From Minisyncoccota bacterium (lineage in GTDB: Bacteria; Patescibacteriota; Minisyncoccia; Phycocordibacterales; XYD1-FULL-46-19), in the NCBI GenBank assembly GCA_041657405.1, contig JBBABX010000001.1, positions 106,316 through 170,315 of the forward strand: 64,000 bases of DNA. Direction: 5' to 3'. The number at the start of each line of letters is the position of its first letter. Position 1 is the first letter of the stretch. A model generated the notes under the pieces. The model searched no databases. It worked only from the letters and a program-made list of their open reading frames with translations, and was not told the DNA's origin. A program made the translations under genes and the position numbers. Of this stretch, positions 28,876 through 64,000 are shown in pieces.

Positions 28876-28893
28876 TAACTAGATTATATTCAT

Positions 28894-28902
28894 TGTGGAT
28901 AA
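28894..28902. promoter_or_regulatory. perfect consensus DnaA box (TGTGGATAA = rc TTATCCACA) upstream of dnaA
   Basis: seen directly; a second weaker box (agtggatta) lies about 45 nt away. Confidence 0.6.
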
Positions 28903-29051
28903 GTTAAGCAAACTTTACAACTATGTTTATAAGTAGTGGATTAGTTGTTAATTACTTTTTGTTTTTTTTAAAATTTAAAAACAACTTGTAAAATAAGAGT
29001 TTTTAAGAACCAAGTATTGATTATTTTTTTAAATAATATAGAATTAAAATT

Positions 29052-29186
29052 ATGTCGTTTACATACAAACCCAAAAAAAAGAAAAGAGCTAAAACACATG
29101 GTTTTTTGGCACGAAAAGCAACTACTGCTGGGAAAAAGGTTCTTAAAAGACGAATAGCTAAAAAAAGGTCTAAATTAACTGTTTAG
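29052..29186 (+). CDS. rpmH: 50S ribosomal protein L34
   Basis: MSFTYKPKKKKRAKTHGFLARKATTAGKKVLKRRIAKKRSKLTV; not in ORF track (44 aa); canonical position upstream of rnpA. Confidence 0.85.
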   Translation: MSFTYKPKKKKRAKTHGFLARKATTAGKKVLKRRIAKKRSKLTV

Positions 29187-29190
29187 TTTA

Positions 29191-29547
29191 ATGTTTCCCC
29201 AAAAGAGGAGGATAAATAAAACTCTTTTTCCAGATATTCTTAAAAAGAGTATTTTTTTTAAAGGGGTGGAGATATCTTTAAGGGTTTCTCCTCAAATAAA
29301 TAAAACTTTTCCATCTCTATTTAGTGTCGTTATTTCCTCTAAAGTGTCCCCTAAGGCGGTTGAGCGGAATTTTTTAAAAAGAAGAGTCCGATCTGCTCTA
29401 CAAAGTCAACTAGATAAGATTAAAGCAGGATATTATTTAATTTTTTATATAAATGATAAAAATTTAGCCAATTTGGATTTTTTAAAACTAAAAGAAAAAA
29501 TCTTAATTTTAATTAAAAAAGCAAAACTTCTTAATAAAAATGTTTAA
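29191..29547 (+). CDS. rnpA: ribonuclease P protein component
   Basis: 118-aa basic protein directly after rpmH; ...RNFLKRRVRSAL... RNR-like motif. Confidence 0.8.
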   Translation: MFPQKRRINKTLFPDILKKSIFFKGVEISLRVSPQINKTFPSLFSVVISSKVSPKAVERNFLKRRVRSALQSQLDKIKAGYYLIFYINDKNLANLDFLKLKEKILILIKKAKLLNKNV

Positions 29548-30283
29548 AACCCTTCTTTTTAACCCCCTTTATAACATCCTCATTATTATTATTAACCTTA
29601 TCCCTGGTGGTGATATTGGTTTGGCGATTATTATTTTAACAATTTTGATTAAACTTTTAATTTTACCGATTTACATTAAATCAATTAGAACTCAGGTGAA
29701 AATGAAGGAAATAGAGCCTAAACTTAAAGAAGTAAAACGAAAATATGAAAAAGACTTACCTGAACAATCAAAACAAATAATGGAGCTCTATAAGGAAAAC
29801 AAGGTTAACCCCTTTTCTAGTTTTTTAGTTTTACTTATCCAATTACCAATAATTCTAGCTTTATTCTATGTTTTTCGTGATAGTTTGGTTGTTCATCAAG
29901 ACATAATCTATTCTTTTGTTTCCATTCCAGAGAAAATTAATCCTCAATTTCTTGGTTTAATTGATATCTCAATGAATAAAAATGTGGTTTTGGCAATTTT
30001 AACTGGTTTAACTCAATTTATTCAAGTTCAGTTGACAATGCCTAAGCCAAAAAATAAAAAAATTAGTCCTCAATCAAAAGAACAACCAACTTTTGGGGGT
30101 GATTTTGCTCGTAGTATGGATATCCAAGTGCGCTATGTTATGCCATTTATTATTTCTTTTATTGCTTGGCAATTACCAGCCGCCATCTCTCTTTATTGGA
30201 TAACCAGTAATATCTTTCATTTAGTATCTGGTTTGAAAATAAAAAAAGAACAAAACAACCCCCTTTCTTTTAAGGAGGTTTAA
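29540..30283 (+). CDS. yidC: membrane protein insertase YidC (short monoderm form)
   Basis: 247 aa, 5 TM, follows rnpA; KLLILPIYIKSIRTQVKMKEIEP and conserved C-terminal TMs. Confidence 0.8.
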   Translation: MFKTLLFNPLYNILIIIINLIPGGDIGLAIIILTILIKLLILPIYIKSIRTQVKMKEIEPKLKEVKRKYEKDLPEQSKQIMELYKENKVNPFSSFLVLLIQLPIILALFYVFRDSLVVHQDIIYSFVSIPEKINPQFLGLIDISMNKNVVLAILTGLTQFIQVQLTMPKPKNKKISPQSKEQPTFGGDFARSMDIQVRYVMPFIISFIAWQLPAAISLYWITSNIFHLVSGLKIKKEQNNPLSFKEV

Positions 30284-49338: not shown

Positions 49339-51708
49339 ATGAACAAGTCAGTATCTTTAATTTTCTTTCTAATAATTACTACTGTTGCCTTAACAATTGC
49401 CTTTTTGTTATTTTTTTGGTGGCGTCGTCAACGTTTAAATAATCTTGATTTGAAAATTTTAGTCATAAAGATTCCCCACCATGACAAAGAAAATGGTGAA
49501 AAAGATTTTATTAAACAAATTAACTTATCTGAGCAATTATTTGTTGCGCTATCTTCTATTGGTCGCCCCTATGTTTTTGAAGCTTCTGTTTTAAACACGG
49601 GCGAAGAAATTCGTTTTTATTTGGCAGTGCCAAGATCTTCTTTGGAATATGCTCGTAAAACTGTTCAAGGTTTTTTCTTAGATGCTCAAGTTGAGGAAGC
49701 TTCTGACTATACGATTTTTGAGACTGGTAGCCAAGCCGCTGCTGGTTATCTGACTTTGGACAAACATTTTGTTTTGCCGGTTGCTTCTTATCGCGAATCA
49801 GAAGCGGACGTTTTTTCACCGATTCTTTCAACTTTATCAAAGTTGGCTGAAAATAGTGAGGGAGCCTCTGTCCAAGTGGTTATTTCGCCAATTGGTGAGA
49901 TATCTAAAAAAGAAATAATGAATATTCTAGGAAAATTACGTGAAGGCAAAACCTTGAAAGAGTTAACAGACACCAGTCCATCTCTCAAAAAGGTAGGTAA
50001 AGAGCTTGAAAAAATGATTTTAACGAATAATGGTGGTGATGAAAAAGAAACTAAATTAGCGGACGAAGAAGCGGTAAAAGCTGTTCAGCTTAAAATTTCC
50101 AAAACCTTGATGTCGGTTAATGTCAGGATTATTGCCGCTGCGGCGACTAAAGGTCGAGCAGAAGATATTCTGATGTCTGTTGCCTCTTCTTTTAGCAAAT
50201 TAGCCTCACCAGTTCGTAACTCATTTAAAATTGTTAAACCTAAGAAGATTAATAAACTTATTTTCCACTATGTTTTTAGAGAGGCAGATGATAGCCAAGC
50301 CATTATTTTAAATGTGGAAGAGTTAGCTAGTATTTTTCATTTACCAACTGAGACTTCTGATGTTCCAAATGTCACTTGGTTGCGAGCAAAAGAAGCACCA
50401 CCGCCAGAAAATTTGCCGACAAAGGGTTTAATATTGGGTCAAAGTGTTTTTCGTGGAGTGGAAAAAACAATTTGTGTAACAGAAGAAGACCGTCGTCGTC
50501 ATACTTATATTGTCGGACAGACCGGAACTGGTAAGTCAGTTTTTATCCAAAATATGGCGATGCAAGATATGTATGAAAACAGGGGTTTTTGTGTAATTGA
50601 TCCGCACGGTGAATTGGTAGATAAAATTTTGAATTTTGTGCCAGTCAATCGGATTGATGATGTGATTATTTTTGATCCAGGAGACCGCAGTCGGCCGTTG
50701 GGGCTTAATATGCTTGAATACAATTTGTCGCGACCAGAAGAAAAAACCTTCATCGTTAACGAAATCCAAGCGATTTTTAACCAGCTTTTTATGAAAGAAA
50801 CAATGGGGCCGCAATTTGAAAAATATATGCGTAATACCCTACTTCTTTTAATGGATGATTTCAAAAATGAACCAACTACTTTAATGGAAGTTCCGCGTAT
50901 CTTTACTGATGAAGAATTTCGTCGTCGTAAACTTTCTAATTGCACCACCCCCCTGGTTATTGATTTTTGGACCAAAGAAGTGCCCAAGACGACTGGCGAA
51001 CAAAGCCTCGGTAACTTTGCGCCTTACATTACATCAAAATTTGACGGTTTTATTTCTAATGATTATTTGCGTCCAATTATTGGCCAAACCAAATCATCTT
51101 TTAACTTTCGTCAGGCAATGGATGAGAATAAAATTATCTTAGTTAATTTGTCTAAAGGCAAATTAGGTGATTTAAATTCGGCACTTTTGGGGATGCTTAT
51201 TGTTGGAAAGCTTTTGCAGGCGGCTTTGTCACGAGTTGATATCATTGATGAAAAATCACGGCAGGATTTTTATCTTTATATTGATGAATTTCAGAATTAC
51301 ACAACAGATTCTATCGCCACAATTTTGTCAGAGGCACGTAAATACCGTCTGAATTTGACGATTGCTCATCAGTTTATTGCGCAACTGAAGGACAATATTC
51401 GTGAATCTGTTTTTGGAAATGTTGGCAATTTGATTGCTATGAGAGTTGGTTCTCCTGACGCTGAAATTTTAGTTAAGCATTTCGGTCCGATTTTTAATGA
51501 GCGCGACTTGATCGGTATTGAAAATTTGAATGCTTATGCCAAAATTTTGATTAATGGTCAGCCAACAGAACCGTTTAATATTAAATTTAAGTGGGCTGAA
51601 GGAGGTTCCACCGAAGTCCGTGAACAAATGAAGGAATTATCACGTTTAAAATATGGCAATGATTTGCAAGAAGTAGAGAATGATATTATAAAAAGACTCA
51701 GAAATTAA
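49339..51708 (+). CDS. TraD/VirD4-like type IV coupling protein (T4CP) ATPase
   Basis: N-terminal TM; Walker A VGQTGTGKSV followed by CVIDPHGEL (cf. TraD GATGTGKS ... IFDPNGD); Walker B LYIDEFQNY. Confidence 0.65.
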   Translation: MNKSVSLIFFLIITTVALTIAFLLFFWWRRQRLNNLDLKILVIKIPHHDKENGEKDFIKQINLSEQLFVALSSIGRPYVFEASVLNTGEEIRFYLAVPRSSLEYARKTVQGFFLDAQVEEASDYTIFETGSQAAAGYLTLDKHFVLPVASYRESEADVFSPILSTLSKLAENSEGASVQVVISPIGEISKKEIMNILGKLREGKTLKELTDTSPSLKKVGKELEKMILTNNGGDEKETKLADEEAVKAVQLKISKTLMSVNVRIIAAAATKGRAEDILMSVASSFSKLASPVRNSFKIVKPKKINKLIFHYVFREADDSQAIILNVEELASIFHLPTETSDVPNVTWLRAKEAPPPENLPTKGLILGQSVFRGVEKTICVTEEDRRRHTYIVGQTGTGKSVFIQNMAMQDMYENRGFCVIDPHGELVDKILNFVPVNRIDDVIIFDPGDRSRPLGLNMLEYNLSRPEEKTFIVNEIQAIFNQLFMKETMGPQFEKYMRNTLLLLMDDFKNEPTTLMEVPRIFTDEEFRRRKLSNCTTPLVIDFWTKEVPKTTGEQSLGNFAPYITSKFDGFISNDYLRPIIGQTKSSFNFRQAMDENKIILVNLSKGKLGDLNSALLGMLIVGKLLQAALSRVDIIDEKSRQDFYLYIDEFQNYTTDSIATILSEARKYRLNLTIAHQFIAQLKDNIRESVFGNVGNLIAMRVGSPDAEILVKHFGPIFNERDLIGIENLNAYAKILINGQPTEPFNIKFKWAEGGSTEVREQMKELSRLKYGNDLQEVENDIIKRLRN

Positions 51709-52118
51709 ATTGAACAGATTTTTAATTAAGTGTTCGGAAGTGTTTAACTAAAAAACTTTCATAAATTTACAACCCAAGAGCCTCCAAAGTTTCTCTCATC
51801 ACGTTTATCTTTTTTACTTTAAATTTTGACTTTTTCCGTCAAATATTTTGAATTATTTGTGTTTTGTTTGCAAAATAAAGCTTTAAAAGTTATCCACTTC
51901 TTGTTGAATTTTTATTGAATTTTGTCTTATTTTGGTCTAAAATAACCAAGTGCTTGATTTTTCTGGATAAGAGAATAAATTAACACTTTTTACTGGTTGC
52001 GGTCGTCATTAAGCACAAAATTTGACTTATTTTACGTAAATCTAAAAAGTCTGAGCCCGAAAAGGAGGCAAAGGCTAAAAAGTCTTTATTTTTATACACT
52101 ATTTTAAATAGGCGGGTT

Positions 52119-53144
52119 TTGATGTTGGCGGTTGTTATTTATATTTTAGTGGTCGCCAGCCAAGCCGAAGCAACAATTTTGTCAACAATGACAGATATTA
52201 TCTTCCGTTCTGGCAAACACCTTTCTACTTCAGCTAATCAAACTTTGGCGGCAGTTTCGGTAAATTCCCAAAATATGGCACTTTTGGAATCTCAACCAGA
52301 AAGAGATGAGTTGTTAGCCAAATCTGATGTTGATTTACCGCTAGTCGGCGGAGCTGCGGTTTTAGCCGAAAATGGTCCAATGGGAACAGTCGCCGATTTA
52401 ACCGAAGGCGTTCCACCGACTGACCAGATTAGCGTTTATATTGTGAGACCTGGCGACAATCTCTCAACTATTGCCCAAATGTATGGAGTCTCTGTTAACA
52501 CAATTCGTTGGGCTAATGATTTAACTAAAAACTCGGTAATAAAAGAAGGCCAAACTTTGGTGATTTTGCCTATAACCGGCATCCGTTATACAGTCAAAAA
52601 AGGAGATACCCTAGCGGGAATTATAAAAAAATATGGGGGCGACTTGGATGAAATAATTCTTTACAATGATTTAGAAATTGAAAAAGGTCTAACGATTGGG
52701 CAAATCATAATTATTCCTGATGGTGATTATGGGGTGCCAGTCGCCAAATCTCCAGCGGCTGGGACCTCTTCGGGGGGGAAATATAAAGGTCCCAGTTACC
52801 CAGGTTATTTTATGCGTCCGATTACTGGTGGAGTTCGCACCCAAGGTCTCCATGGCAATAATGCGGTTGATTTGGCAGCACCTTATGGCACACCGATTTA
52901 TGCGGCAGCTTCGGGACAAGTTATTTTGGCTCGCCCAACTGGTTATAATGGCGGTTATGGCGGCTATTTAGTTATCTCTCATCCCAATGGGACACAAACT
53001 CTCTACTCTCATTGTAGTAGTTTGGCAGTAATTTCTGGACAAAGAGTAGAAAGGGGTGATGTTGTTGGTTATATTGGTTCCACGGGTCGTTCTACTGGCA
53101 ACCATCTTCATTTTGAAGTTCGTGGCGCAGTCAATCCCTTTTAG
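52119..53144 (+). CDS. LysM-domain M23 family metalloendopeptidase
   Basis: two LysM repeats (YIVRPGDNLSTIAQMYGVSVNTI..., YTVKKGDTLAGIIKKYGG...); M23 motifs HGNNAVDL...GSTGRSTGNHLHFEV. Confidence 0.9.
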   Translation: MMLAVVIYILVVASQAEATILSTMTDIIFRSGKHLSTSANQTLAAVSVNSQNMALLESQPERDELLAKSDVDLPLVGGAAVLAENGPMGTVADLTEGVPPTDQISVYIVRPGDNLSTIAQMYGVSVNTIRWANDLTKNSVIKEGQTLVILPITGIRYTVKKGDTLAGIIKKYGGDLDEIILYNDLEIEKGLTIGQIIIIPDGDYGVPVAKSPAAGTSSGGKYKGPSYPGYFMRPITGGVRTQGLHGNNAVDLAAPYGTPIYAAASGQVILARPTGYNGGYGGYLVISHPNGTQTLYSHCSSLAVISGQRVERGDVVGYIGSTGRSTGNHLHFEVRGAVNPF

Positions 53145-53216
53145 ATTTGTTCGCGGTTTTTTTTGGGGGGGGGCAAAAATTAATTCTAAAAATTGCCTAA
53201 AAATAACGATTTAAAC

Positions 53217-53245
53217 GCTTCAGCATCCATCTGAAGCATTTATTA
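53217..53245 (+). terminator. terminator-like hairpin (gcttcag-catccat-ctgaagc followed by ATTTATT)
   Basis: seen directly, between convergent M23 and comM remnant. Confidence 0.4.
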
Positions 53246-53329
53246 ATTCTTATTTTAGAATTCTTCCAATTCTTTATTTTTTGGCAACCAGTTGTTTTCT
53301 GGATGTTTGTCTCTTAGACAGTCTTATTT

Positions 53330-54028
53330 TTAAAAATGATTTAAATTTTTAGGTCGATACTGAAATGCTTCTAACAAATGTTCTTCTCTGATATCTTTTT
53401 CTTCAGCGAGATCCGCAATCGTGCGAGCTAATTTAATAAGTCTATGATAGGCACGAGCTGAAAGGTTTAACTTGGAGGCTGATTCATTTAATAATTTTTG
53501 GCAGACGTTATTAAGTGGGGCATATTTTTCTAAATCCCTAGTATTCATCTCGCTGTTATAATATTTATTTCTTTCTTTTAGTCGTTCAGTTTGAATTGCA
53601 CGAGCTTTGACAACTCTTTCAAGAACTTTTTGGGAATATTCTCCTTTTTCTGTTTCGCTTAACTTTTTATATTCTACGGTGGGCACTTCTAACCATAAAT
53701 CAATGCGATCTATGACTGGACCGGAAATTTTATGTTGATATTTTTGAATTTGTCCCATTGAACAAACACATTCTTTAACGCGTGAACCAAGATATCCACA
53801 AGGGCAAGGATTCATTGCAGCGATCAAAATAAAATTAGCTGGGAAGTTCATATGTCCGCGCGAACGAGAAATACTTATGACCCGATCTTCTAAAGGTTGA
53901 CGCAGGGCCTCAATCACTTTTTTGTCAAATTCCGGAAATTCATCCAATGCCTTTGTCCCACAATTGTCTACTGGCTCACTTTTTAGTAGTATCTGACCAT
54001 GTACGACAATGGAAGTGTAGGAGAGCAA
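53330..54028 (-). pseudogene. comM: comM/yifB (Mg-chelatase-like competence protein), 5'-truncated: only the C-terminal ~230 aa present
   Basis: hallmark LDEFPEF...ALRQPLEDRVISISR...AAMNPCPCGY; Lon-like N-domain and Walker A are absent; homology stops at the junction with GC-richer foreign DNA. Confidence 0.7.
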
Positions 54029-54211
54029 ATACTGAATGGGGTCTTTAATGCCCTTTGGATTATTGCCCTACCTTTTGTTGGTATCTATCTATTATTGAAA
54101 TGGTTTGTTGTGGGAATAACAAAAGAAACTGGTAATAGGATTATAAAAATAGTGGGTGGAGCAATTGCTGTCGGAATAGTTGGATATATCTCAACTTTCT
54201 TTCTCAATTAA
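53999..54211 (+). CDS. small 2-TM membrane protein at the island edge (tentative)
   Basis: ATG ORF, 70 aa, hydrophobic (WIIALPFVGIYLLLKWFVVGI..., GGAIAVGIVGYISTFFL). Confidence 0.3.
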   Translation: MYDNGSVGEQILNGVFNALWIIALPFVGIYLLLKWFVVGITKETGNRIIKIVGGAIAVGIVGYISTFFLN

Positions 54212-54213
54212 AT

Positions 54214-54246
54214 TGTAGGACGTTTCTTATAAGGTGTGTCCCACAA
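54214..54246 (+). repeat. copy 1 of 33-bp hairpin motif TGTAGGAC-N16-GTCCCACAAA
   Basis: tgtaggacgtttcttataaggtgtgtcccacaaaa; seen directly. Confidence 0.6.
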
Positions 54247-54248
54247 AA

Positions 54249-54632
54249 TTAACTACTAGGATTGCAATTTAAGTATCTAAATGAATTATTTTGTCCTTGC
54301 CCCCAAGCCACCACTATTTTTTTATTAAGATACCTGTTTCTTATCTCATCGGGAGCAATTTTTCCTTCAAACTCCCACTTTGTGGGTTCGTACTCAGCTT
54401 TTTTCCATCTATCTATACTAAATACACCCTTTACTCTGTTTTGGTAAATAGCTAGTGCATAGTCTACTAAATCTTTAGACTCGCCAGTTTTGCTTAAAGA
54501 CCAAGCTTGTTTGGCTATATCGTAAATAGAGTTCTCATCCCCTTCCATGTGGGGTCTATAAGTTTGCGATATGTTCAACAATATAACTTTATCCTCTATG
54601 TCTTCCAGTCTAATTTCTTCTAAATTCTCCAT
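54249..54632 (-). CDS. hypothetical protein (127 aa)
   Basis: ORF; divergent partner of 54880..55581; bracketed by the hairpin-motif copies. Confidence 0.4.
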   Translation of the reverse strand: MENLEEIRLEDIEDKVILLNISQTYRPHMEGDENSIYDIAKQAWSLSKTGESKDLVDYALAIYQNRVKGVFSIDRWKKAEYEPTKWEFEGKIAPDEIRNRYLNKKIVVAWGQGQNNSFRYLNCNPSS

Positions 54633-54810
54633 GCTTTAATTGTAGCAAAGCGGTAGCTATTACAAAAAGTCTGCCCCACAATACGTTACTATTTAGGTAT
54701 GGTTTCAAAATTAAGAGCTTCAATCATTGTAGTGATTGTTGGACTAGCTTCTTTCTGGTTGGGTATGCAGACAGTAGTTCCTTGTGATTGTATTTCCAGA
54801 TTTGCTCTAC

Positions 54811-54843
54811 TGTAGGACACGATTTACGGTACGTGTCCCGAAA
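54811..54843 (+). repeat. copy 2 of 33-bp hairpin motif (tgtaggacacgatttacggtacgtgtcccgaaa)
   Basis: seen directly in the divergent intergenic region, ~37 nt upstream of the 54880 start. Confidence 0.6.
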
Positions 54844-54879
54844 CTTGCTTTACGTTGGTAGTCATATACGATAGATTCT

Positions 54880-55581
54880 ATGCCGAATAATAATTTCCAA
54901 ACACTACTGAAATTCTTTCTGGATGAGTTTGAAATGGAACTATTATTTGATCAAAGAAAACCTCAAAATATACAAGAAGGGATTTTAATCACTATCTTTA
55001 ATAGGATAAATGATATTCATACAATAATAGAACGACTTGGTCGTTACGATGTTTATTTTGATGCTTTTTATCCAGAAAATGATAGTCAGATTAGTGACGC
55101 TGAAGCAATTGAGTATCATCTCCACAGTTACTTACAGGACTTTTATTCTTTAAACGAGAAAGTTAATAGATTACTAGGATATATAAAGAACAATATTAAA
55201 CATTTTGATGTTGGTAATCCAGATGTTGTTAAAAAATTATTGGAACACTTACTCAATCAGGTTGGAAATGGTTTGAAGCAGGTTAATAATTTACGTGGTG
55301 ACCACGTCCATGACATGTCTGTTCGTGACAGTGAAATCTCAAGAGCAAAAATGCTTAAGACTTTAATGGGTTTTCATGAGGGAATTGACGAGCAAGCTGT
55401 AAAGGAAAAATACCAAACCATTATTGTAGAGACAAAGAAGAAATATGTTGGTCAAGCAGAAGCCAATAGAGAACAATTAAATGGAATGCGAAACTTTATC
55501 GCCCCAAGACTAGGACATGTTATTGCTTTCTTATATCAAAAGGACAGCTCTATATTTGAGAAAGAAATGTCACAAAATTAA
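54880..55581 (+). CDS. hypothetical protein (233 aa)
   Basis: ATG ORF, no recognisable motif. Confidence 0.45.
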   Translation: MPNNNFQTLLKFFLDEFEMELLFDQRKPQNIQEGILITIFNRINDIHTIIERLGRYDVYFDAFYPENDSQISDAEAIEYHLHSYLQDFYSLNEKVNRLLGYIKNNIKHFDVGNPDVVKKLLEHLLNQVGNGLKQVNNLRGDHVHDMSVRDSEISRAKMLKTLMGFHEGIDEQAVKEKYQTIIVETKKKYVGQAEANREQLNGMRNFIAPRLGHVIAFLYQKDSSIFEKEMSQN

Positions 55582-55694
55582 GTGACAACTACTGCGGTTA
55601 ACGTCCTGTAAAAGATTACGATAGTTAACGTATCCTCTCGTACGCGTGTACGCGCGCGGGAATGTGCCTTAAATATGGACTTGGGATATTGGTT

Positions 55695-55728
55695 TGTAGG
55701 ACAGCTATTAGTATTTCTGTCCCACAAA
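55695..55728 (+). repeat. copy 3 of 33-bp hairpin motif (tgtaggacagctattagtatttctgtcccacaaa)
   Basis: seen directly between 55581 and 55870. Confidence 0.6.
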
Positions 55729-55869
55729 CCGTACTGTGGATATGTGGATAATTAAGTAAATTAGCCCTAAAAGCCATACTCTTGAACGTATTTGCTTGAC
55801 TTTTTCCTACTTAGTCAATAGACTGAATAAGTAAGTGGTGTTTCTTAATCACTCCACTGAATAAGGAAA

Positions 55870-57294
55870 ATGAACAAGGAAGCAATCGAATACATACAAA
55901 ATCAAATGAACAGAAGTGAGGACAGGCTTCGCCCGTATGTTTTTGCTACACCTACGTTCACCTTCCCTGAACGCCATGTTGTTATTCGTATTAAAAAGTA
56001 TGTTTCTGATTTTCTTGGAGGGAAACGAGACTTTCGTTGGGTAGTTGTGCCTGGTCTTCGTGGAGTTGGTAAGACAACTGCAATGGCACAAGTCTTTCTT
56101 ACTGCGAAAACAACTCGAACAAAAAGTGACTTTTTATATATGTCTGTTGATGACCTCACTACCAGAGGTCTTTCGTTGAATGATGCTCTGGATGCATACG
56201 AAGTAATTTTAGGAAAACCATTTGAAAAACTAGACAGCCCTGTCTTGATGTTTATTGACGAAGTACAACAAGATCCAAACTGGGCAGCTATTCTTAAATC
56301 ACTTCATGATAGAGCAAGAAATGTATTTCTCTTCTGTACTGGTTCGTCTGCTGTTTCTCTCCAGTCAAACCCTGATGTAGCTAGACGTGCACAATTTGAG
56401 AAATTGTACCCATTGAGTTTTGGTGAGTACGAGATGATTAAAAATAACATCTTTCCGCAAAAGGGTCTTAAAGAAAGAATCAAGGAAGCTTTATACGGTG
56501 CTTCAAATGCAGAGGACGCATATAACAGACTCAAACCATTGGAAGCTTCTGTCGCTTCACAGTGGGCAAAATTTGACCGCTCAAATATAGACGAATATCT
56601 ACTCAATGGTACGTTACCTTTTACGCTCAAAGCAATTACTCCTAACGCCTACGACAACATAAATATTCTACTCGATAGAATTATCGACAAAGACATCAAA
56701 GAGTTGGGGCAGTTTGACGCGGCTACCTTAAGTGCAATAAAACGACTTCTTTTCATAATGGCTGACAGTGACATCATCAGTGTCAACAAAGTGAAAGACA
56801 TCATAAACCTAAGCTACAACACAGTGATGTCCGTGTTGGATGTTCTGGAACGTGCGGAGCTTATTATTAAAGTTCCAGCACAGGGTTCTAAAACAAGCCA
56901 AGCACGCAAACCATCAAAGTATCTGTTTATGAGTCCAGCACTTCGTTCAGCATTGTTGAGTGTGAGTGGTGTAGAGGGTACTTATCTCGCACGCAAAGGG
57001 AAATATTTGGAAGACATCGCAGGGCTACACTTCTATCGAGAATTTGTTGCTCCACGTATTGGCTCTCTTACCCACGACCCAACACAAGGGAGTGCTGATT
57101 TCATTTTACAGATAGCCGACAAGAAACAGTTAGCGTTTGAAATGGGACTTGGTAGAAAGGGTTATGACCAAGTCAAAACAACAATGGGAAACTTCAAGAT
57201 TGATTTTGGAGTGGTTGTTTGTGCAACTGACCTCATGCTTTCAAGAGAAGATAATGTTCTCAAACTACCATTGGACTATTTCCTATTGATGTAA
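55870..57294 (+). CDS. AAA+ ATPase of the AAA_14 + DUF4143 architecture
   Basis: Walker A VVPGLRGVGKTTAM, Walker B LMFIDEVQQDPNW, ...FCTGSSA...; GC-rich. Confidence 0.65.
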   Translation: MNKEAIEYIQNQMNRSEDRLRPYVFATPTFTFPERHVVIRIKKYVSDFLGGKRDFRWVVVPGLRGVGKTTAMAQVFLTAKTTRTKSDFLYMSVDDLTTRGLSLNDALDAYEVILGKPFEKLDSPVLMFIDEVQQDPNWAAILKSLHDRARNVFLFCTGSSAVSLQSNPDVARRAQFEKLYPLSFGEYEMIKNNIFPQKGLKERIKEALYGASNAEDAYNRLKPLEASVASQWAKFDRSNIDEYLLNGTLPFTLKAITPNAYDNINILLDRIIDKDIKELGQFDAATLSAIKRLLFIMADSDIISVNKVKDIINLSYNTVMSVLDVLERAELIIKVPAQGSKTSQARKPSKYLFMSPALRSALLSVSGVEGTYLARKGKYLEDIAGLHFYREFVAPRIGSLTHDPTQGSADFILQIADKKQLAFEMGLGRKGYDQVKTTMGNFKIDFGVVVCATDLMLSREDNVLKLPLDYFLLM

Positions 57295-57339
57295 TTCCTA
57301 TCCCTACTAAATAAGTTTATCTGAGGGTGTCGTGGATGT

Positions 57340-59104
57340 TCACGAGCCTTTTTTATTTGTGGTTGTGCCTTTATACATACCTGGATTAGCAACAAGCAAA
57401 TCACGGCTCCGCTCATGCTGACTCAATGTTTTGATATGCAATATAAGTCTCATGTTGTCCTGCTGTGAAACAGGCTCGATGTGTTTATCACTCATCACAC
57501 GTGTCGAAACGGGAAACCTAAAGAATACCTCGGCATAGTTCTTCTTAGGGAATAGGTTAATCCTCTCAATGAACAAACGAAGTATGTACTGCTTATCCTC
57601 GTAGCTGACGTTTTCCAGTCTCGTCTTGATTTGCTCGTACAACTTTTTAAGCACAACCCCTCTATCTTTCCGTTCGTCACGTTTAATGAGTACCTGTTCA
57701 AACTTAGCTTTCTGATTCTCCATTGCTTCAATGTTCTCGTTACACTCCTTTAAGTGTTGCTCACATTCTTTCTCTGGAAGACTCTTAAACATGAAAGCTC
57801 TGGTAATTCGAGCACGTTGCTCTAGGAGTGATTTGATTTGCTTCTCACACTGAGCAATTTTCTCATTTGCTTTTTCTGCACTTGAATTCTTGAATGTGTA
57901 CTCTTCCAGTTTCGGTATGACATTCTCAGGGTCTTTAAGTATGGAAACGAGACACTCCCAAATCGGCTCGAGTCGTGTCTCGGCGTACTGATATCGTACA
58001 AATTTATTCTCTGGATTATTCGCGTTCTCTAACATATGTGTGATAGTACTTTCCTAGTGTCCGTGAGTCCTTTCCAACTTTTGGAGTTTGGTACCCACTT
58101 TGCAACTTGTTACCTGTCTCTCCACAATAAAGGAGTGTTGAGTACAGGTATGGTCTCTTTGTGTTTCGCTTTGAGTTCTCTCGATTCTTTTTGAGTTGCT
58201 GTATTGAAGCCTGAAACATTTCCTTACTAATGATCTGCGGAACTTTAATTGGTATCCATTCTTCTTCTGGTCTCTGATGTTCTTCTTCAAGTACAGCGTC
58301 AAGATACTTAAATGGTCTCTTGTACTTCCTGTAGTAGAAATCTCCTGTGTATACCTCGTTAACCAAAAGACGATTTATGCTCCGCTTCCACCAGTAGTTA
58401 AACGTCTTACGTTTTTTCTGGGTGTTGTGTTTTGGAGCCGGCATTTCCAATTGATTTGCTCGCTTCGTAATCTCAGTGAGTGAGCAACGCTCGTACACAA
58501 GCCAGTGGTAGAACTGCTTCACGACCTCAGCTTCCTCTGGAATGATTTCCAATTGCTTAGTCTTCTTATCTACCTTATAGCCATAGGGAGGAACGCCAGT
58601 GACCCACTTGTTGTCTCGTGCCGCCTGTTCACGTCCTCCACTCATTCGTTCCCTAATAACTTCACGTTCAAGCTCTGCAAGACTCCCCAACATTTGAAGT
58701 ACGAATCTTCCGTTTGGTGTACTGGTATCAAATGATTCAGTAGCCGACTTGAATTCAATATCAAGTTCGAGAAGTTTCTCAACAGCGTCTAGGAGCTTTC
58801 TGGTACTCCTAAAAAATCTGTCTAGACGATACACAATAACGATGTCGAACTTCTTTGCCTTTGCGTCCTCAAACAATTTCTTCAATCCGTCACGTTTCTC
58901 AATCGCCAGTGAGCCAGATTTACCCTCATCTCCGTATGTGAGTATATTTTCAATATCATACGAATCAGGTTGGCTCTCGCAGAACTTCTGCAAGCGTTCC
59001 TTTTGTACTTTGATTCCATACTTATCATCCTTTGCTTGCTCATCAGTAGAAACTCGTGTGTACAATGCAACTCTCTTCTTTTGTATATTTAACTCAGTCA
59101 TCAT
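57340..59104 (-). pseudogene. large serine recombinase (resolvase catalytic domain + recombinase domain + coiled-coil) interrupted by a 1-nt frameshift at ~58016-58035
   Basis: N-terminus RVALYTRVSTDEQ (catalytic Ser); ORFs 58016..59104 (362 aa) and 57340..58035 (231 aa, coiled-coil) overlap by 20 nt in different frames; combined ~590 aa is typical for this family. Confidence 0.7.
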
Positions 59105-59108
59105 TACA

Positions 59109-59360
59109 TTACTTATTGATTACACCCCTAAAGATTCTGCGTAGATGACGTGTTAGCAACATGCGATACATCCGCTTGATGTTGGGAAGCAATTTTTTTG
59201 ACATAGATTGATTTTTAATATCGATACAGATATTTTTCTCATTAACTGGTAAATTGTGTTTGTTACAATATTCAAGCAAAGACGCTTTCTGCCCCTCCGC
59301 TTCTTCATTAGTAGATGTACGTATGTACAATGCTACATTGGGATTTTTTACATTAGTCAT
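59109..59360 (-). pseudogene. second serine recombinase, N-terminal catalytic fragment only (83 aa)
   Basis: NVALYIRTSTNEEAEGQKASLLEYC... parallels the resolvase catalytic motif; truncated after ~80 aa; directly upstream of the large recombinase. Confidence 0.5.
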
Positions 59361-59571
59361 AATTTTTTTGGTTAAATCTCACTACCAGTCGTCCGTCCTT
59401 GCTCTTTACGTAGAATTTCTTTGATTTAGGAAACCCTGACTCAATGAGCAAGTTCCTGACGAAGCTTTCTGGTGTGAATCTTTTAATTTTGCGATTGGTT
59501 TGTTTTTTCATATTCCTATAAAACGCTGTATTTAAGCCATTTATAGGACATATTAGATACGGATAGGACAA
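59353..59571 (-). CDS. hypothetical basic 72-aa protein
   Basis: ORF only. Confidence 0.3.
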   Translation of the reverse strand: MSYPYLICPINGLNTAFYRNMKKQTNRKIKRFTPESFVRNLLIESGFPKSKKFYVKSKDGRLVVRFNQKNYD

Positions 59572-59839
59572 CTAAGTACAGGTAAGTACAACTATTAGCT
59601 GTCTATAACTTTTCTGAAAATCGCGCGTGCAGACCCCTTTCTACTTTCTGGCAAAGAAAATAAATGAATTCCTGCCTGGCTCATTTCAAACTACATATCC
59701 AGCAAACAAACCATTTTGTAATTTATCTTTTAATTAATAATTATCTTTTGTCTGAATCACTGTGAGTATACTTTGTGCCTTTTTACGTGAATCTCCCTGA
59801 TACAACTTTGAATCACCCTGATTCACGTGACCGTACTCA

Positions 59840-60526
59840 CTACAAGACTATCTTTGACCGTTCTACGTCCTGAGTCCTCTGCATGAATGACACTAGCTTT
59901 GACCACTTTTGCTCAAGATCAACTGGAGAACCAATCACTGGAGCATACTTCTTGCCATTCGTTACCTGCACAAGACCGATAACTTGTTCAACCATTTCAA
60001 TTCCGTAGTGTTCTACTAACTTCTCGATTGCTTTGACTTGTCTCCTATCTCTCTTTAAGTCATCCGTCCTGTGTTGAGCAACTGACCGAAACATTTCTAT
60101 CAACCTGTCTGCCACAATGTTTACGACTTCTGGTTCCTGTTCCACGTCACTCTCCAACACAAGACTTATTTCATTCGTTTTGTACTTTGACCTCTTCACA
60201 CTAATGAATCCTTTCTCCTCAAGACTTACCAACACCCTCGGCACTTGAGCCTTGCTCACACCCGAACCTTTGTTTCTTGAACCTATACCAGTCACAAACT
60301 GACTAATACTTATCTTGTCCGTGGTTCGTTGGAATCCAAGTGTCTGCCTGAGAATGAAGTCCAAACACTTCTGTTCGACTCCACTGAGTGAGTGCCAGTA
60401 CGATTCAAGGATGGTTGGATACTTGAAGAAGTCTCGCTTGTACTCTTTTTTGAATCCGGGGAATCTCGTATTCTGTTCATTTTCTTTTTCCATAAATTCA
60501 AGACAGTACACACCCTGTTCCGCCAA
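59840..60526 (-). CDS. phage replication protein O-like / replisome-organiser-like wHTH protein
   Basis: ...QKCLDFILRQTLGFQRTTDKISISQFVTGIGSRNKGSGVSKAQVPRVLVSLEEKGFISVKR fits the Phage_rep_O N-terminal pattern (kv.l.i.r.t.Gw.k..d.iS.sq......G.s......al..L.e.G.I). Confidence 0.45.
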   Translation of the reverse strand: MAEQGVYCLEFMEKENEQNTRFPGFKKEYKRDFFKYPTILESYWHSLSGVEQKCLDFILRQTLGFQRTTDKISISQFVTGIGSRNKGSGVSKAQVPRVLVSLEEKGFISVKRSKYKTNEISLVLESDVEQEPEVVNIVADRLIEMFRSVAQHRTDDLKRDRRQVKAIEKLVEHYGIEMVEQVIGLVQVTNGKKYAPVIGSPVDLEQKWSKLVSFMQRTQDVERSKIVL

Positions 60527-60854
60527 GCATTACTGTAGTATCTGTCTGAGGTGTGTGAACTATTAGAGCAGTTTTGATCTCAGATATGTGTCCTTGAAGG
60601 CTCTCTCGCTCGATGATTTGAATCATGATTGGATTATCTTTGTCTCCACCCACTTTATGCTTATGTGCTTTTGATTCCTCAATAATGTAGTGGAGCGTTT
60701 CCTTAAATTCACTTGTCTCAATGGCTGATTTAATAGGCGAATCGATAAACATTGATGTCAGCATTGGCAGTGATTTTTTAATTTCGTTTAGCTCCGCCAT
60801 TTCCTCCACTTTTTTTGTGGTAACAAATGGACTTAGTATTGGTTCTTTTTTCAT
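60498..60854 (-). CDS. hypothetical protein (118 aa)
   Basis: ORF only. Confidence 0.3.
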   Translation of the reverse strand: MKKEPILSPFVTTKKVEEMAELNEIKKSLPMLTSMFIDSPIKSAIETSEFKETLHYIIEESKAHKHKVGGDKDNPIMIQIIERESLQGHISEIKTALIVHTPQTDTTVMLGGTGCVLS

Positions 60855-61091
60855 TTTGTTTTGATTTATTACTTGTTAATTCTTTAGGATTCGACTTTCT
60901 GTTTTGTGCCCAGTCGAAGAAAAGCTCCCACGATGTGTCGTGTTCAACCTGAGTTTCTTCTGCTGTAATAAAAAATCGCTCCATATGTGGAACGATAACC
61001 TAAAATACTTGACCTGTTTAATTTTCTATTTTATAAAAATAACCACCTTTTCCAGCTATTGTTCACCTAATCACTCACCTAACGCACTCAG

Positions 61092-61862
61092 TTAGCTTTT
61101 TTTGACAGAATCGTTATCCACCTTTCTTCTTGTCCCTGTTCGATAATTCAAACTCTTTCGTTTCTGTATATTTGAAATCTTCGCCCAACCTCCATGTCCC
61201 TCAGTCCATGCAAGAATGTTTAGGAAAGTATTTTTACCTTCATCTTTTATCACCGAAAATGAAATCACCCCTTTACCTTCTAAAGCCTCTCTAATCTTTT
61301 TACTTGGTTCGCTGTCTGTCCAGAACAAAATCATTTTTCCAGAGATTCCCACGGCGTCAGGAATCCGCTTGATATCCGATGAGTTTATTTTTTCATTGCC
61401 TATAACAAAATTTCCATCCTTGATAGTGCTCACGATAATGACTGCTCCGTGTGTTTTAGTAGTCTTTCCCAACGTCCCCATGAAATCCCTTTTTGAATCC
61501 CTTGAAAGTAAATCGACACGCACACCCTTAGACTCCAGAGCATCTCTTAGCTTTTTCGCTTTATCCAAATGTCCTACTGAGACGATACTTACAAACTTTT
61601 CAGTAAGACGTCCGTCACCAGCTCGAACCTTTTTGAAATCTTTAAGTTCGCCCTTATCAAATTTATCCAAAAAGTTGAGAACATTCTTGTGAGCTATCAC
61701 ATAACGCTTGTCCCTACTGCCAGAGCCACGCATTTTGGGTAGAAAGATCTCTTCATACGCATTAACATATTTTCGTATTGTCGCTTTATTCCTCCACGGC
61801 AATAACCCAGAATCAGCCAGTTCACTTAGAGTGTAGACTTCTTTTTGCTTTTTATTACTCAC
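61092..61862 (-). CDS. hypothetical protein with N-terminal HTH-like segment
   Basis: YTLSELADSGLLPWRNKATIRKYVN resembles an excisionase/MerR-type HTH; the rest is unassigned. Confidence 0.4.
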   Translation of the reverse strand: MSNKKQKEVYTLSELADSGLLPWRNKATIRKYVNAYEEIFLPKMRGSGSRDKRYVIAHKNVLNFLDKFDKGELKDFKKVRAGDGRLTEKFVSIVSVGHLDKAKKLRDALESKGVRVDLLSRDSKRDFMGTLGKTTKTHGAVIIVSTIKDGNFVIGNEKINSSDIKRIPDAVGISGKMILFWTDSEPSKKIREALEGKGVISFSVIKDEGKNTFLNILAWTEGHGGWAKISNIQKRKSLNYRTGTRRKVDNDSVKKS

Positions 61863-61984
61863 TCACTAATGATAAACAAAACTCGCCAAAATGACGAGTT
61901 TTACGTTTGTGGTAAGTAAACCACACACCTGACCCTTTCCATACCTCTAAGAGTGTCTGAGGGACTCTGGTATTGGTAGATATC

Positions 61985-62464
61985 CTACTGCGAACCTACA
62001 GAAATTGACCCTGAACCACTTTTGACCACCTGACCATTAACTTTGGCAGTAAACGAAAATGTCTTAATTCCGTTCATTCCATGCACAGAAGTTGGGCCTG
62101 TGTTGATGTCAAAGTAGACACTTGTACCAAGACCAGGAGCTATTGCCTGACTCGATGAGAATGTTTTGTCATAGACCGAGCCTCCCTCTGCGTTTATGAG
62201 GTCAATGTTCACATCACCAGCGAAAGGTTCGTTGTCATTGTTTTTAATATTGAAAAAGTATCTGTACTTACCACCAACCTCTTTAACGTTTTGACTGGTA
62301 ACGGAAATATTTTTTTGTTCCTGTGTGACTTCTGGTGTTGATTTTATTTTCTCGTTAGAAGAAAACAAACTCACTACCGTAACCACTGCAACTATTAAAA
62401 GAAGTCCAAAGAAAAGACCTTTTAGGAATTTCCAAATTCCAGAAAGTATTTGATTTTTATTCAT
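61985..62464 (-). CDS. secreted or membrane-anchored protein (159 aa)
   Basis: N-terminal TM/signal LKGLFFGLLLIVAVVTVVSLF. Confidence 0.4.
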   Translation of the reverse strand: MNKNQILSGIWKFLKGLFFGLLLIVAVVTVVSLFSSNEKIKSTPEVTQEQKNISVTSQNVKEVGGKYRYFFNIKNNDNEPFAGDVNIDLINAEGGSVYDKTFSSSQAIAPGLGTSVYFDINTGPTSVHGMNGIKTFSFTAKVNGQVVKSGSGSISVGSQ

Positions 62465-62694
62465 ATGTTGTGCCTAACGATTTGTAATGTCTGGTGGACA
62501 AACAAAAATCCGGCCACCAGGAAGGCTCCGAAGAACCTCTACAGAAGTTTCCCTCTGCAACGTTAGGCACGCCCTGAATGACCGGGTTTTTGTGCCTAAC
62601 GATTTCGACCATACCTTACAGAAAATCCATAAGGGTTAGGTCATTCAATATTCAGTTGTAACTACATGGTATTACTTTCGGAGTAAGAAGTAAA

Positions 62695-63309
62695 TCAACT
62701 CAAAGAATCTTCTACCATTTCCACAAGTTGAGGTAATGTTTTGATTGAACCTGATTGTGTGTATTCAATTTTCTTTGTGTTGCTATTCCACACCATTACA
62801 CCGAGCTTGTGGGTGATGGTTTGTCCATCAATCATGCGGACTATTTCAGTAAGGTCTTTATCAGCATCCAGTATGATTGAAAACTCTTGGCTTACAGAAT
62901 TATCCACGTTCATGAGTACACCATAACGTGACTTTGAGACTAGGCAATATCCAATTAATTGAGAAAGTTCTGTCAAACCAATCCGCTTTGTTTTCTTTAT
63001 TTCAAAAATAAGCACTTCAAATTTACCGTTCTGTTTGTTCTCTAATATAATTGATATGTCGAGATGAAGTCGATGAACATTCTTTCCGTACTCCTTCAAA
63101 GCTTCTCCTGCTTGGTATCCGTTCGCGATTAAAGTCGCCATAGCACCACTTATTTCCCCAATCATTGGGTGTACCTCAATCTCCTTGTTTTTTAGATTTG
63201 ATAAAAACACTTCTTTTAATGCAGAAGCAATTTCTGGGTAGTGGTCAACTTCAATTTTTCTTTCATCTTTCAGCATATATTTATTATTTAAGGATGACAC
63301 ATTCAGCAA
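62695..63309 (-). CDS. hypothetical protein, possible PD-(D/E)xK nuclease fold
   Basis: HLDISIILEN...KFEVLIFEIKKTKR gives a D...E-x-K arrangement; weak. Confidence 0.35.
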   Translation of the reverse strand: MLNVSSLNNKYMLKDERKIEVDHYPEIASALKEVFLSNLKNKEIEVHPMIGEISGAMATLIANGYQAGEALKEYGKNVHRLHLDISIILENKQNGKFEVLIFEIKKTKRIGLTELSQLIGYCLVSKSRYGVLMNVDNSVSQEFSIILDADKDLTEIVRMIDGQTITHKLGVMVWNSNTKKIEYTQSGSIKTLPQLVEMVEDSLS

Positions 63310-64000
63310 ATTTCGGCGAGCGAATTTTTAACTGTAGATTGTTTTGAGTAATTAGTGTCTTGTTGAATTTGTCATTGATGTAACCAACTAACGCACTGTT
63401 CGAACCATTTTTTATATGTACACAAGTACCTCGGTTTGGAATTCCAATCTTTATTTCGTTCATCTTAGACACATTTTCCCTAATCAGTTCAGAGTAACTG
63501 CCAAGTATTCTCTTTCCTCTGACTTTTGTTGGATCTGAAGAAGCGAAAACGTAGGCTAGACCTTGTAACAAGTAATTTATTGGGAACCCGTCTTCTGTAG
63601 AATTGCCAAATACAAGAGCATTTTTATTTTTGTCATACAGTGACAATAATCCTGAGACATCTATATTTTCATATGTAAAAATAGTCTTTTGAAGATAGTC
63701 CTCAGATTGTATGATGTTTTCAATCTCTGCAGATGTGCCCTTACTTAAAAGTGTGAATGGAGAAATGTAGCTCTCAAAATTTTGTACTTCGTGCATTCTT
63801 GAAAGAGGTAATCTTAATCCTAGGTGTTCAGCCAAGTGAGTGTAGTGAATGAAATGTAGTCCACGCACTTCAGTTGGAAGCCAGTCTGAATTTTCGTCAA
63901 TATGCAAAGCCGTTCTACCGCCTATATTTGTTTTCTTCCCTGCAGACGTATTAGCTTTTTGTTGCAAACCTTGATTTTCATTAGCTGAAAGCTGTTTTGA
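63284..64000 (-). CDS. hypothetical protein, probably incomplete at window end
   Basis: ORF-track start 63967 is TTG; the frame stays open to position 64000. Confidence 0.35.
   Translation of the reverse strand, partial: SKQLSANENQGLQQKANTSAGKKTNIGGRTALHIDENSDWLPTEVRGLHFIHYTHLAEHLGLRLPLSRMHEVQNFESYISPFTLLSKGTSAEIENIIQSEDYLQKTIFTYENIDVSGLLSLYDKNKNALVFGNSTEDGFPINYLLQGLAYVFASSDPTKVRGKRILGSYSELIRENVSKMNEIKIGIPNRGTCVHIKNGSNSALVGYINDKFNKTLITQNNLQLKIRSPKFAECVILK

Follow-up and report, generated by a model that had tools for sequence, protein, structure and literature searches.

Introduction

Several mobile elements that carry a large serine recombinase (LSR) split the gene into which they insert, among them A118/phi10403S in comK of Listeria and SPbeta in spsM and skin in sigK of Bacillus subtilis. 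Their enzymes, like those of PhiC31 and Bxb1, combine Resolvase and Recombinase domains with a zinc ribbon and a coiled coil. Their attP sites are imperfect dyads, crossover takes place over 2 bp without target duplication, and the interrupted coding sequence can be restored by excision. Serine recombinases religate the exchanged strands only if the central dinucleotides of attP and attB match, and serine integrases are seen as 'one attP, one attB' enzymes, with the central dinucleotide as their strictest requirement. Here we analyse an element with these same features in a 64,000-nucleotide stretch of DNA (the window) from a Minisyncoccota bacterium of the Patescibacteriota (GenBank assembly GCA_041657405.1, contig JBBABX010000001.1, positions 106,316 to 170,315). 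The element is inserted in comM and belongs to a family that differs from phage and plasmid LSR systems in several respects: identity to their recombinases is 35% or less, the element has no phage genes, the recombinase has lost its zinc ligands and is encoded by a split gene, and each element carries several attP sites instead of one.

Sets of attP sites that differ only in their 2-bp overlap are known as laboratory constructs. Engineered orthogonal attP/attB pairs exploit the matching-dinucleotide rule, so that in PhiC31-based assembly one integrase joins only sites with the same overlap (PMC3936721). The set described below, in contrast, appears to be natural, lies on one mobile element and is matched to NTN codons. 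Integrons likewise carry arrays of recombination sites, and in our element, too, some of the sites have single small genes between them (window 53954-55727). Integrons, however, depend on a tyrosine recombinase and folded single-stranded attC sites, whereas the sites of the comM family are double-stranded 34-bp palindromic LSR attP sites with a fixed spacer, some of them packed together without genes. No IntI tyrosine recombinase is present among the element's genes; its recombinases are all of the serine type.

The AbaR islands are Tn7-like transposons. They and other islands occupy the same target gene, comM, in Acinetobacter, Vibrio, Pseudomonas and Pasteurellaceae, and comM disruption by mobile elements, known in several Gram-negatives, is thought to shield the element from removal by transformation (PMC11441513, PMC12378983). 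Patescibacteria are absent from the review list of hosts in which comM is disrupted by a mobile genetic element (PMC11441513, PMC12378983). The comM family probably gains the same benefit as the AbaR-type islands, namely the disabling of a transformation helicase that could help delete the element, but it uses an LSR on one specific codon. We found no transposase genes, of the TnsABC(D) type or any other, in it, and its junctions share 2 bp only, not a 5-bp target duplication. Our literature searches returned no natural element with multiple attP sites, no LSR element in comM and no programmed frameshift in a serine recombinase.

Results

Only the 3' part of comM is present in the window (53330..53947, minus strand; 205 codons plus stop), as the initial annotation of this DNA had recognised and Pfam confirms. 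It begins at the Leu codon TTG of the Walker B sequence VLFL-DEFPEF. The surrounding open reading frame (ORF; 53330..54028, minus strand) matches Mg_chelatase at positions 108-206 of 207 and Mg_chelatase_C, and its first 27 codons are element DNA. The stop in ComM homology that had been placed at ~54030 is therefore real, but the actual boundary is 53947 and the rest of the ORF consists of element codons. The second junction and the 5' half of comM, predicted to lie past 64000, were both located on contig L001 (Logan SRR18595299), which is 100% identical to window 51985..64000 and extends 8.4 kb past the window. Beyond position 64000 it carries the rest of a gene for a 455-amino-acid (aa) protein, a C5 DNA methyltransferase gene, the 5' half of comM, a DksA-like gene, two unknown genes and the gene for PNPase. 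The 5' half (comM-N; ChlI and Mg_chelatase 1-112) occupies window-equivalent positions 65764..66735, 1.8 kb past the window end. The two halves jointly span the ChlI, Mg_chelatase and Mg_chelatase_C profiles without gap or overlap. The cut falls exactly at the Walker B Leu codon (VLFL/DEF), comM-N ending in ...HRGVLFL and comM-C starting with LDEFPEF, and the rejoined ComM of 521 aa aligns over 100% of its length with intact proteins of 522-534 aa, at 80% identity.

A relative whose ComM is 80% identical (contig L112, protein P0123) has an intact comM with the same neighbours, in the order PNPase, two genes, DksA-like, comM, M23 peptidase, VirD4-like gene, UvrD. BLASTN of L001 against L112, which is continuous, puts the left break in L001 at ~6680-6691 and the right break at 18518. 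An intact comM in identical synteny indicates insertion and not ancestral gene loss, the alternative to which such a comparison could have pointed. Nor did we find a second, full-length comM in the 72 kb available, where tblastn with the rejoined ComM returned the two halves only. With both junctions and an empty-site relative in hand, the proposal that foreign DNA was inserted into comM by an LSR is borne out. No tRNA genes lie near the element. Next to the insertion, a 789-aa homologue of VirD4/TrwB-like coupling proteins (49339-51708, plus strand) adjoins the gene of an M23/LysM peptidase. This homologue belongs to the host, since L112 has it in the same position next to the empty comM site and L108 has it there as well. 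Both comM fragments stay open into the element (53948-54028; L001 6680-6701): comM-C gains 27 codons from a TTG start and comM-N gains six element codons (ETVPQK) before a stop, so that gene callers give two 'ATP-binding proteins' and not a pseudogene.

The element is 11.84 kb long, and window positions 53948..64000 hold its right-hand 10 kb. At the right junction, attR (53930..53963, minus strand) consists of the P arm TTGTGGGACA, aaggca, the crossover TT (53946-53947) and the comM B' arm ggatgaatttcc; it can also be written TTGTGGGACAaaggca-TT-ggatgaatttcc. The other junction, attL, reads ggagttttattc TT agagac TGTCCCACAA, or ggagttttattc-TT-agagacTGTCCCACAA. From these we reconstructed attP as TTGTGGGACAaaggcaTTagagacTGTCCCACAA and attB as ggagttttattcTTggatgaatttcc, the latter with dyad symmetry at 8/12 positions. 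A short crossover dinucleotide had been expected at the att sites, and it was found at the dyad centre: attL and attR share TT only, midway between perfect 10-bp inverted arms that are 14 bp apart. The general form of the site is two 10-bp arms, TTGTRGGACA and TGTCCYACAA, separated by 14 bp. Both ends could be compared in eight elements of the family. In five of them attL and attR have exactly the central 2 bp in common (TT in L001, L016 and L110; CT in L015 and L108), and in the other three (L007, L010, L012) they have 3-4 bp in common, the central CT included. A shared 2-bp centre without duplication is the product expected of an LSR. As the junctions show, the enzyme inserted the circular element into comM of its host, a member of the Paceibacteria (Patescibacteria), through an exchange with a 2-bp stagger at TT in the Leu codon; from known LSR chemistry, precise excision would restore comM.

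Related elements were traced from the closest LSR homologues (L015, L007, L010, L012, L016, L108, L110, L111 and L113; LSR identity from 97% down to 45%), and all of them sit in comM at the same codon. The most informative is the sister element L015: the first ORF of its recombinase (ORF1, see below) is 97% identical to that of the window element, compared with 55% for the host ComM proteins, and the GC content of the host flanks is 0.38 for the window and 0.52-0.56 for L015. Across the family, elements range from 0.38 to 0.48 and hosts from 0.38 to 0.65. The discrepancy between recombinase and ComM identities, together with the mismatch in GC between elements and hosts, shows that the element has moved recently between distant hosts.

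The window element carries more than the one attP site through which it integrated. The window has 12 matches to its arm motif TTGTGGGACA (≤1 mismatch) where 3.3 would be expected, and five of the 12 lie within the 1.8 kb of 53954-55727. Three internal sites, all on the minus strand, have the exact 14-bp spacer and ≤4 mismatches. S2 (54213..54246; centre AT) reads TTGTGGGACA cacctt AT aagaaa CGTCCTACAA in comM sense, is intact and has an identical counterpart in L015 (3314-3347). S3 (54810..54843; centre GT) reads TTTCGGGACA cgtacc GT aaatcg TGTCCTACAG in comM sense. S4 (55694..55727; centre CT) reads TTGTGGGACA gaaata CT aatagc TGTCCTACAA, is intact, and is of the type used by L015. The fourth, TT-centred site is the one used for integration and is split into attL and attR. 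There is in addition an isolated half-site, TTGTGGGGCA (54672..54681, minus strand), which has no partner arm.

In L015 the roles of the CT- and TT-centred sites are exchanged. Its junctions, ...ctattc CT aatagc TGTCCTACAT and TTGTGGGACA gaaata CT ggacga..., fall in a host CTG codon; the attP reconstructed from them equals S4 of the window at 33/34 positions, and L015 keeps an intact TT-centred site (3597-3630). A small module between the AT- and TT-centred sites, which in the window consists of a 70-aa ORF with two hydrophobic segments (53999..54211, plus strand), is 93% identical in L015 but is found there at the other end of the element, next to comM-N. The gene order of L015 is thus circularly permuted, which fits cutting of the same circle at another site.

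Internal sites were compared across nine elements. The window element used TT and keeps CT, GT and AT, whereas L016, which also used TT, keeps AT, CT and GT, and L110, again through TT, keeps CT. The CT site was used by L015 (internal AT, TT), L108 (AT, TT), L010 (TT), L012 (TT and a weak AT) and L007, which keeps TG, GT, AT and TT in a cluster of four sites within 165 bp and with no genes between; L111, perhaps integrated through GC, keeps CT. Each element thus has between one and four extra intact attP-like sites, not the single attP expected of an LSR element. The used centre is repeated at none of 18 internal sites, the centres are distinct inside each element, the second base is T in 17/18 internal sites (comM-sense strand), and the circular order CT-GT-AT-TT is kept in most of the nine.

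On the host side, codons at the crossover are TTR or CTN. Among 117 intact relatives the residue at this position is Leu in 112 and Met (ATG) in five, and two more examined by eye have Leu; a target for an AT-centred site therefore exists. The TT and CT sites have been used for integration. Given the matching-dinucleotide chemistry and the distinct internal centres, the simplest reading is that the array is a battery of attP sites for the NTN codons of the hydrophobic Walker B residue. Such an array would let one element enter comM alleles with a TTN, CTN, ATN or GTN codon, the AT and GT sites presumably serving in the same way as the other two. We also considered whether the array could have arisen by tandem accretion of independent mini-elements, and rejected this: the internal sites are of the complete P-P' type, with no attL/attR hybrids among them, and once comM is occupied it has no attB left. 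At two soil LSR loci (L099 2157-2190 and L102 10836-10869), whose recombinases have about 40-44% identity in the C-terminal region of ORF1, there are perfect or near-perfect palindromes with different arms, TTGTGTCCTG...CAGGACACAA. Their 14-bp spacer tcgttc CT cgatga resembles the comM core TTC CTC GAT GA, and comM targeting may, to judge from this resemblance, extend to a wider LSR group.

The recombinase is encoded in two frames. ORF1 (58016..59104, minus strand; 362 aa) comprises the Resolvase domain (Pfam PF00239, E = 9.3e-39) with the motif YTRVSTDEQ, the Recombinase domain (PF07508, E = 1.3e-16) and the first strands of a zinc-ribbon-like domain, and ends in ...GKYYHTYVRERE-TAA. The motif, which holds the serine nucleophile, is invariant in 20 homologues. 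ORF2 (57340..58035, minus strand; 231 aa) has its own conserved ATG and comprises the second half of the zinc-ribbon-like domain, a coiled coil and the C-terminal domain; it matches the integrase family phrog_95 (419-574/651). ORF2 lies in the +1 frame relative to ORF1 and overlaps it by 20 nucleotides (nt) in the window, and by 20 or 26 nt in 8/8 loci. The alignment of ORF1 plus ORF2 to the SPbeta integrase crosses the ORF junction. In the AlphaFold model of an unsplit relative, P0002, the split maps to a loop (361-365; pLDDT <50) between strands of the zinc-ribbon-like domain, and the coiled coil (407-469) falls inside the ORF2 part. The top Foldseek matches of this model are the full-length SPbeta, Bxb1 and PhiC31 integrases (E = 1e-22).

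The interruption of the frame, which had been described as a 1-nt frameshift breaking an LSR of ~590 aa, is real. Its reading as a broken gene is not, for the split is conserved and ORF2 is under purifying selection. The two-frame recombinase is found in the window and seven other loci, with 20 ORF1-type proteins in the database. ORF1 ends at the same point (...GKYYHTYV-x-E-x(1-6)-stop) in 20/20 closest homologues, which have 60-93% identity; the unsplit relatives (L016, P0002) have ≤58%. Of 24 free-standing ORF2 proteins in the database, 23 have their initial Met at one and the same aligned position, which is 13-15 residues ahead of QYAETRL. The Tyr codon that provides the ATG of ORF2 is TAT in 8/8 loci, while the two adjacent Tyr codons are a mixture of TAT and TAC. 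The ratio of nonsynonymous to synonymous substitution rates (dN/dS) between the window and L015 is 0.026 for ORF1 and 0.096 for ORF2; for ORF2 in other pairs the proportion of synonymous differences is 0.75-0.95 (saturated) and that of nonsynonymous differences 0.12-0.30. Judged from these coding sequences, selection acts to keep both ORFs. Translation of ORF2 most probably starts at its conserved ATG, which would give a two-polypeptide LSR. Moreover, the window element and L015 share the split and yet used different attP sites in different hosts, so the split enzyme supported at least one transfer and integration.

A third shared feature is a structured RNA. The window contains a full-length LOOT RNA (Rfam RF03000; 62522..62642, minus strand; model positions 1-121 of 121) with a score of 67.2 bits against a gathering threshold of 46.4. 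The RNA is present in 7/8 related elements that include the region, at 71-90 bits (L010 6612-6731, L015 6468-6585, L110 7537-7654, L012 5490-5611, L016 6982-7097, L108 5740-5858, L113 5519-5638), and only L007 is without it; the partial contigs L111 and L114 gave no match. It always lies on the strand of the core genes, 49-67 nt upstream of the gene for a protein with an N-terminal membrane anchor, at the boundary between variable cargo and conserved core. Because of this recurrence and fixed position, the LOOT RNA, an orphan 'sRNA' motif, appears to be a core component of the element family. The main text of its discovery paper does not discuss this RNA.

The remaining genes of the element include all of those listed in the initial annotation. 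From the right-hand end, the array of sites encloses a 127-aa gene (54249..54632, minus strand) that resembles the C-terminal part of the PADLOC candidate defence protein PD-T4-3 (E = 5.9e-10; phrog_5356, E = 1.6e-10) and, between the GT and CT sites, a 233-aa gene (54880..55581, plus strand) without a family match in Pfam, PADLOC or PHROG. These are followed by an AAA_14/DUF4143 ATPase (55870..57294, plus strand; Pfam AAA_14, E = 5e-25), a candidate defence gene that matches PADLOC PDC-S01 (E = 2.9e-29). On the far side of the recombinase, an 83-aa ORF (59109..59360, minus strand; Pfam Resolvase, E = 5e-4) is the remnant of a stand-alone resolvase catalytic-domain ORF. It corresponds to the second recombinase N-terminal fragment noted earlier and is indeed truncated relative to the 145-aa ORF of L015, to which it is 34% identical over 85 aa. 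Stand-alone resolvase-domain ORFs lie just upstream of the LSR in L015 (9980-10417, 145 aa), L016 (9585-10004, 139 aa) and L114 (1857-2324, 155 aa); that of L015 (Resolvase, E = 2.8e-23) is 40% identical to the N-domain of the LSR. They are candidate recombination directionality factors. Directly upstream of the recombinase is a basic ORF of ~52 aa (…KRFTPESFVRNLLIESGFPK…GRLVVRFN…; 59353..59511, minus strand), with homologues in L010 and L012 (both at 9850-10008) and L007 (6239-6427), which could be a directionality or excision factor, a regulator or the leader of an autoregulated operon. A strongly conserved region of ~70 nt within 59512-59600 contains a P'-like half-site, ctaataTGTCCTATAA, and a short hairpin; the half-site region (...AT ctaata TGTCCTATAA; 59541..59574, minus strand) is found at the same place in L001, L015, L007, L010, L012 and L108.

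The core continues on the minus strand with a replication-initiator-like gene (59840..60526; Rep_O/winged helix; Pfam PF04492, E = 5.6e-7; phrog_18020 'replication initiation O-like', E = 6.7e-9), two genes for proteins of 118 and 256 aa (60498..61862), with 260-265-aa proteins at the same position in L010, L012 and L108, and the gene for a 159-aa protein with an N-terminal membrane anchor (61985..62464), the first core gene downstream of the LOOT RNA. Three contigs, each from a different sample, L003, L004 and L005 (ENA ERZ27247346, JGI 3300028603, Logan SRR8449813), all end at window position 60725 within the 118-aa gene, which suggests an element variant or a repeat that breaks assemblies. 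Beyond the RNA lies cargo, also on the minus strand: a 193-aa PD-(D/E)XK-like gene (62695-63276; PDDEXK_3, a weak match with E = 0.002) and the 455-aa gene, which runs from 63284 to past the window, so that the last ORF in the window is an edge artefact, and an exact protein look-up with it gave no record. Together with the C5 DNA methyltransferase (L001 6785-7810; DNA_methylase, E = 3.7e-85; PADLOC MTase_II, E = 4.9e-100), these two genes probably form a type II restriction-modification (R-M) module. In the family as a whole, the variable cargo between attL and the core comprises R-M modules (HincII-type, AlwI-type, NgoFVII-type, type III, C5-methylase), Z1, a Shedu-like SduA_C gene, CBASS and UvrD-like helicases, and the replication gene is either Rep_O-like or Prim-Pol.

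Composition does not set the element apart. Its GC content is 0.387 and that of the host part of the window 0.355. Among 10-kb windows of the host part the standard deviation is 0.032, and 14% reach the GC content of the element. The shift reported as 'GC-richer' is therefore insignificant and inside the host's own spread, and we rejected it as a sign of foreignness. A stretch elsewhere in the window, 26001-30000, deviates more than the comM element, with a GC content of 0.22-0.27; it spans the ORFs 26184-27293 and 27505-28875.

Several scans were made for further members of the family. One of genome contigs gave mostly distant LSRs, of which only L015 and L016 were useful, and a metagenome scan with a clade-specific C-terminal profile returned two known elements and distant soil relatives only. 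IMG/VR scans with the ORF1 end motif, the reconstructed attP(TT) and a generic site pattern gave no match. Scanning all other retrieved loci for the arm motif added L113 alone, and L109 was excluded as a long-read contig of 2.5x coverage with many broken genes. The longest contigs with full-length LSR relatives (P0021, P0022, P0042, P0079 and P0117) all measure 11.62-11.68 kb, approximately a whole element, and may be free circular forms.

Discussion

The enzyme and the junctions fit an LSR integrative element, one that departs from the expectations of one polypeptide and one attP. We consider it likely that the element is a non-conjugative, non-phage integrative element with defence cargo, its own replication initiator, a LOOT RNA and an LSR, and that it integrated through one site of an attP array. 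In keeping with this, none of its genes encodes a relaxase, a coupling protein or a type IV secretion component. For the more ambitious joint proposal, a 'master-key' system in which an orthogonal attP array (TT, CT, AT, GT) covers the NTN codons, the LSR consists of two polypeptides split in the zinc ribbon, and the LOOT RNA is a dedicated core component, we would put the chances at about even.

The locus had originally been read as a locked-in and decaying island, in which a 1-nt frameshift had inactivated one serine recombinase and truncation the other, and which is inherited only vertically. The interrupted LSR frame and the 83-aa resolvase fragment, shorter than the 145-aa ORF of L015, agree with such decay, as do the absence of a same-species empty site or circle from our searches and the finding of an identical insertion across several samples. 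Against it, the split recurs in at least 20 homologues of 60-93% identity with both ORFs intact, the start Met of ORF2 is kept in 23/24 proteins, and ORF2 has a dN/dS of 0.096 in the one pair and saturated synonymous sites in the others. Furthermore, both att arms are perfect, and a near-identical split LSR entered, through another attP site, a host with only 55% ComM identity. Decay is thus largely refuted, and we regard it as highly improbable. A living recombinase could also be made if ribosomes underwent a programmed +1 frameshift on reaching the ORF1 stop, which would yield one recombinase of ~588 aa besides a truncated ORF1 product. A +1 shift at the TAA gives a protein collinear with the unsplit P0002 (...HTHVPEREGARSNIRVQYGESRL), the stop is TAA in 8/8 loci and follows an A-rich codon, and no Shine-Dalgarno sequence precedes the ATG of ORF2. 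As in known +1 frameshift genes (prfB, some insertion sequence transposases), the ORFs overlap with the downstream one in +1, and the full-length ancestral protein would result if the ribosome changed frame at the stop codon. The split LSR differs from those genes in having no conserved shift-prone codon or stimulator: the pre-stop codon varies (GAA, AAA, AGA, CGA), and no common slippery codon or Shine-Dalgarno-like stimulator is seen. It has instead the conserved +1-frame ATG, kept in 8/8 DNA loci and in nearly all ORF2 proteins, which a stop-codon shift would not need. Our literature searches gave no report of programmed frameshifting in serine recombinases. Because this ATG is conserved, we favour separate initiation of ORF2 and find frameshifting rather unlikely.

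The internal palindromes might alternatively be operators or accessory sites at which the recombinase or a repressor acts on nearby cargo genes, their centres being incidental. All three in the window are intergenic and near gene starts (S3 precedes the 233-aa gene by 37 nt and S4 the ATPase gene by 143 nt), and the conserved region ahead of the LSR operon contains a half-site that is conserved too. This explanation does not predict that the used centre recurs at 0/18 internal sites, nor that the second base is T in 17/18; it also sits poorly with the four sites of L007 packed into 165 bp without intervening genes, and with CT- and TT-type sites that are each used in one element and intact inside another. 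We therefore judge it unlikely, and prefer the array of attP sites. As to the nature of the element, a small prophage or phage satellite with a serine integrase would account for the Rep_O-like initiator and the LSR, which are typical phage modules, and the nearest annotated integrases, at 33-35% identity, come from Firmicute phages. When the recombinase and the Rep protein were compared with phage databases, as had been suggested, both indeed matched phage-type proteins, but membership of a phage did not follow. In PHROGs and Pfam none of its genes matches a capsid, terminase, portal, tail or lysis protein, phage structural genes are missing from the other family members as well, and no family member is found in IMG/VR. 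Defence cargo makes up most of the 11.8 kb; in relatives Prim-Pol can take the place of Rep_O, and the cargo includes CBASS, R-M or Shedu-like genes. A phage origin thus appears very unlikely, and an integrative element with defence cargo remains our preferred description.

Several observations weigh against the attP array, the two-polypeptide enzyme or the mobility of this copy. The nine elements are phylogenetically related, so the counts of their sites are not independent. No element found has integrated through an AT or GT site, which leaves half of the proposed battery unproven. Two sites fall outside the NT rule: the attR of L111 (3489-3522) has the centre GC, giving a comM codon GCC (Ala) and not Leu, its attL being off the contig, and the first site of the L007 cluster (181-214), a fifth and poorer one, has the centre TG (TTGCAGAACA tcaatt TG aactgg TGTCATACAA). 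The four zinc-ligand Cys residues are not kept in this clade, the start of ORF2 lacks a Shine-Dalgarno sequence, and assembly of the two polypeptides into one LSR is a candidate mechanism. Neither a same-species empty site nor an excised circle was found, the closest intact ComM in the protein database being 80% identical, and the window copy is no more than a candidate for current activity.

If the array functions as proposed, an attP set that answers the synonymous-codon problem would be a new principle of target-range expansion, paralleling a trick devised independently in synthetic biology. A selected split of the LSR in its DNA-binding and synapsis domain would likewise mean that a separate subunit can provide the coiled-coil module, which bears on directionality control and on the engineering of split integrases. 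For annotation, such split recombinases should not be labelled pseudogenes. The orphan LOOT RNA gains a genomic home. Patescibacteria hosts depend on DNA uptake, and the insertion disables ComM, a branch-migration helicase of natural transformation. By analogy with the Gram-negative islands, disruption of comM would protect the element from transformation-mediated removal in Patescibacteria too. A widespread family that carries R-M, CBASS, Shedu-like and PDC-S01 defence genes, and whose members all disable ComM, would thus tie intragenomic conflict over transformation to the Patescibacteria.

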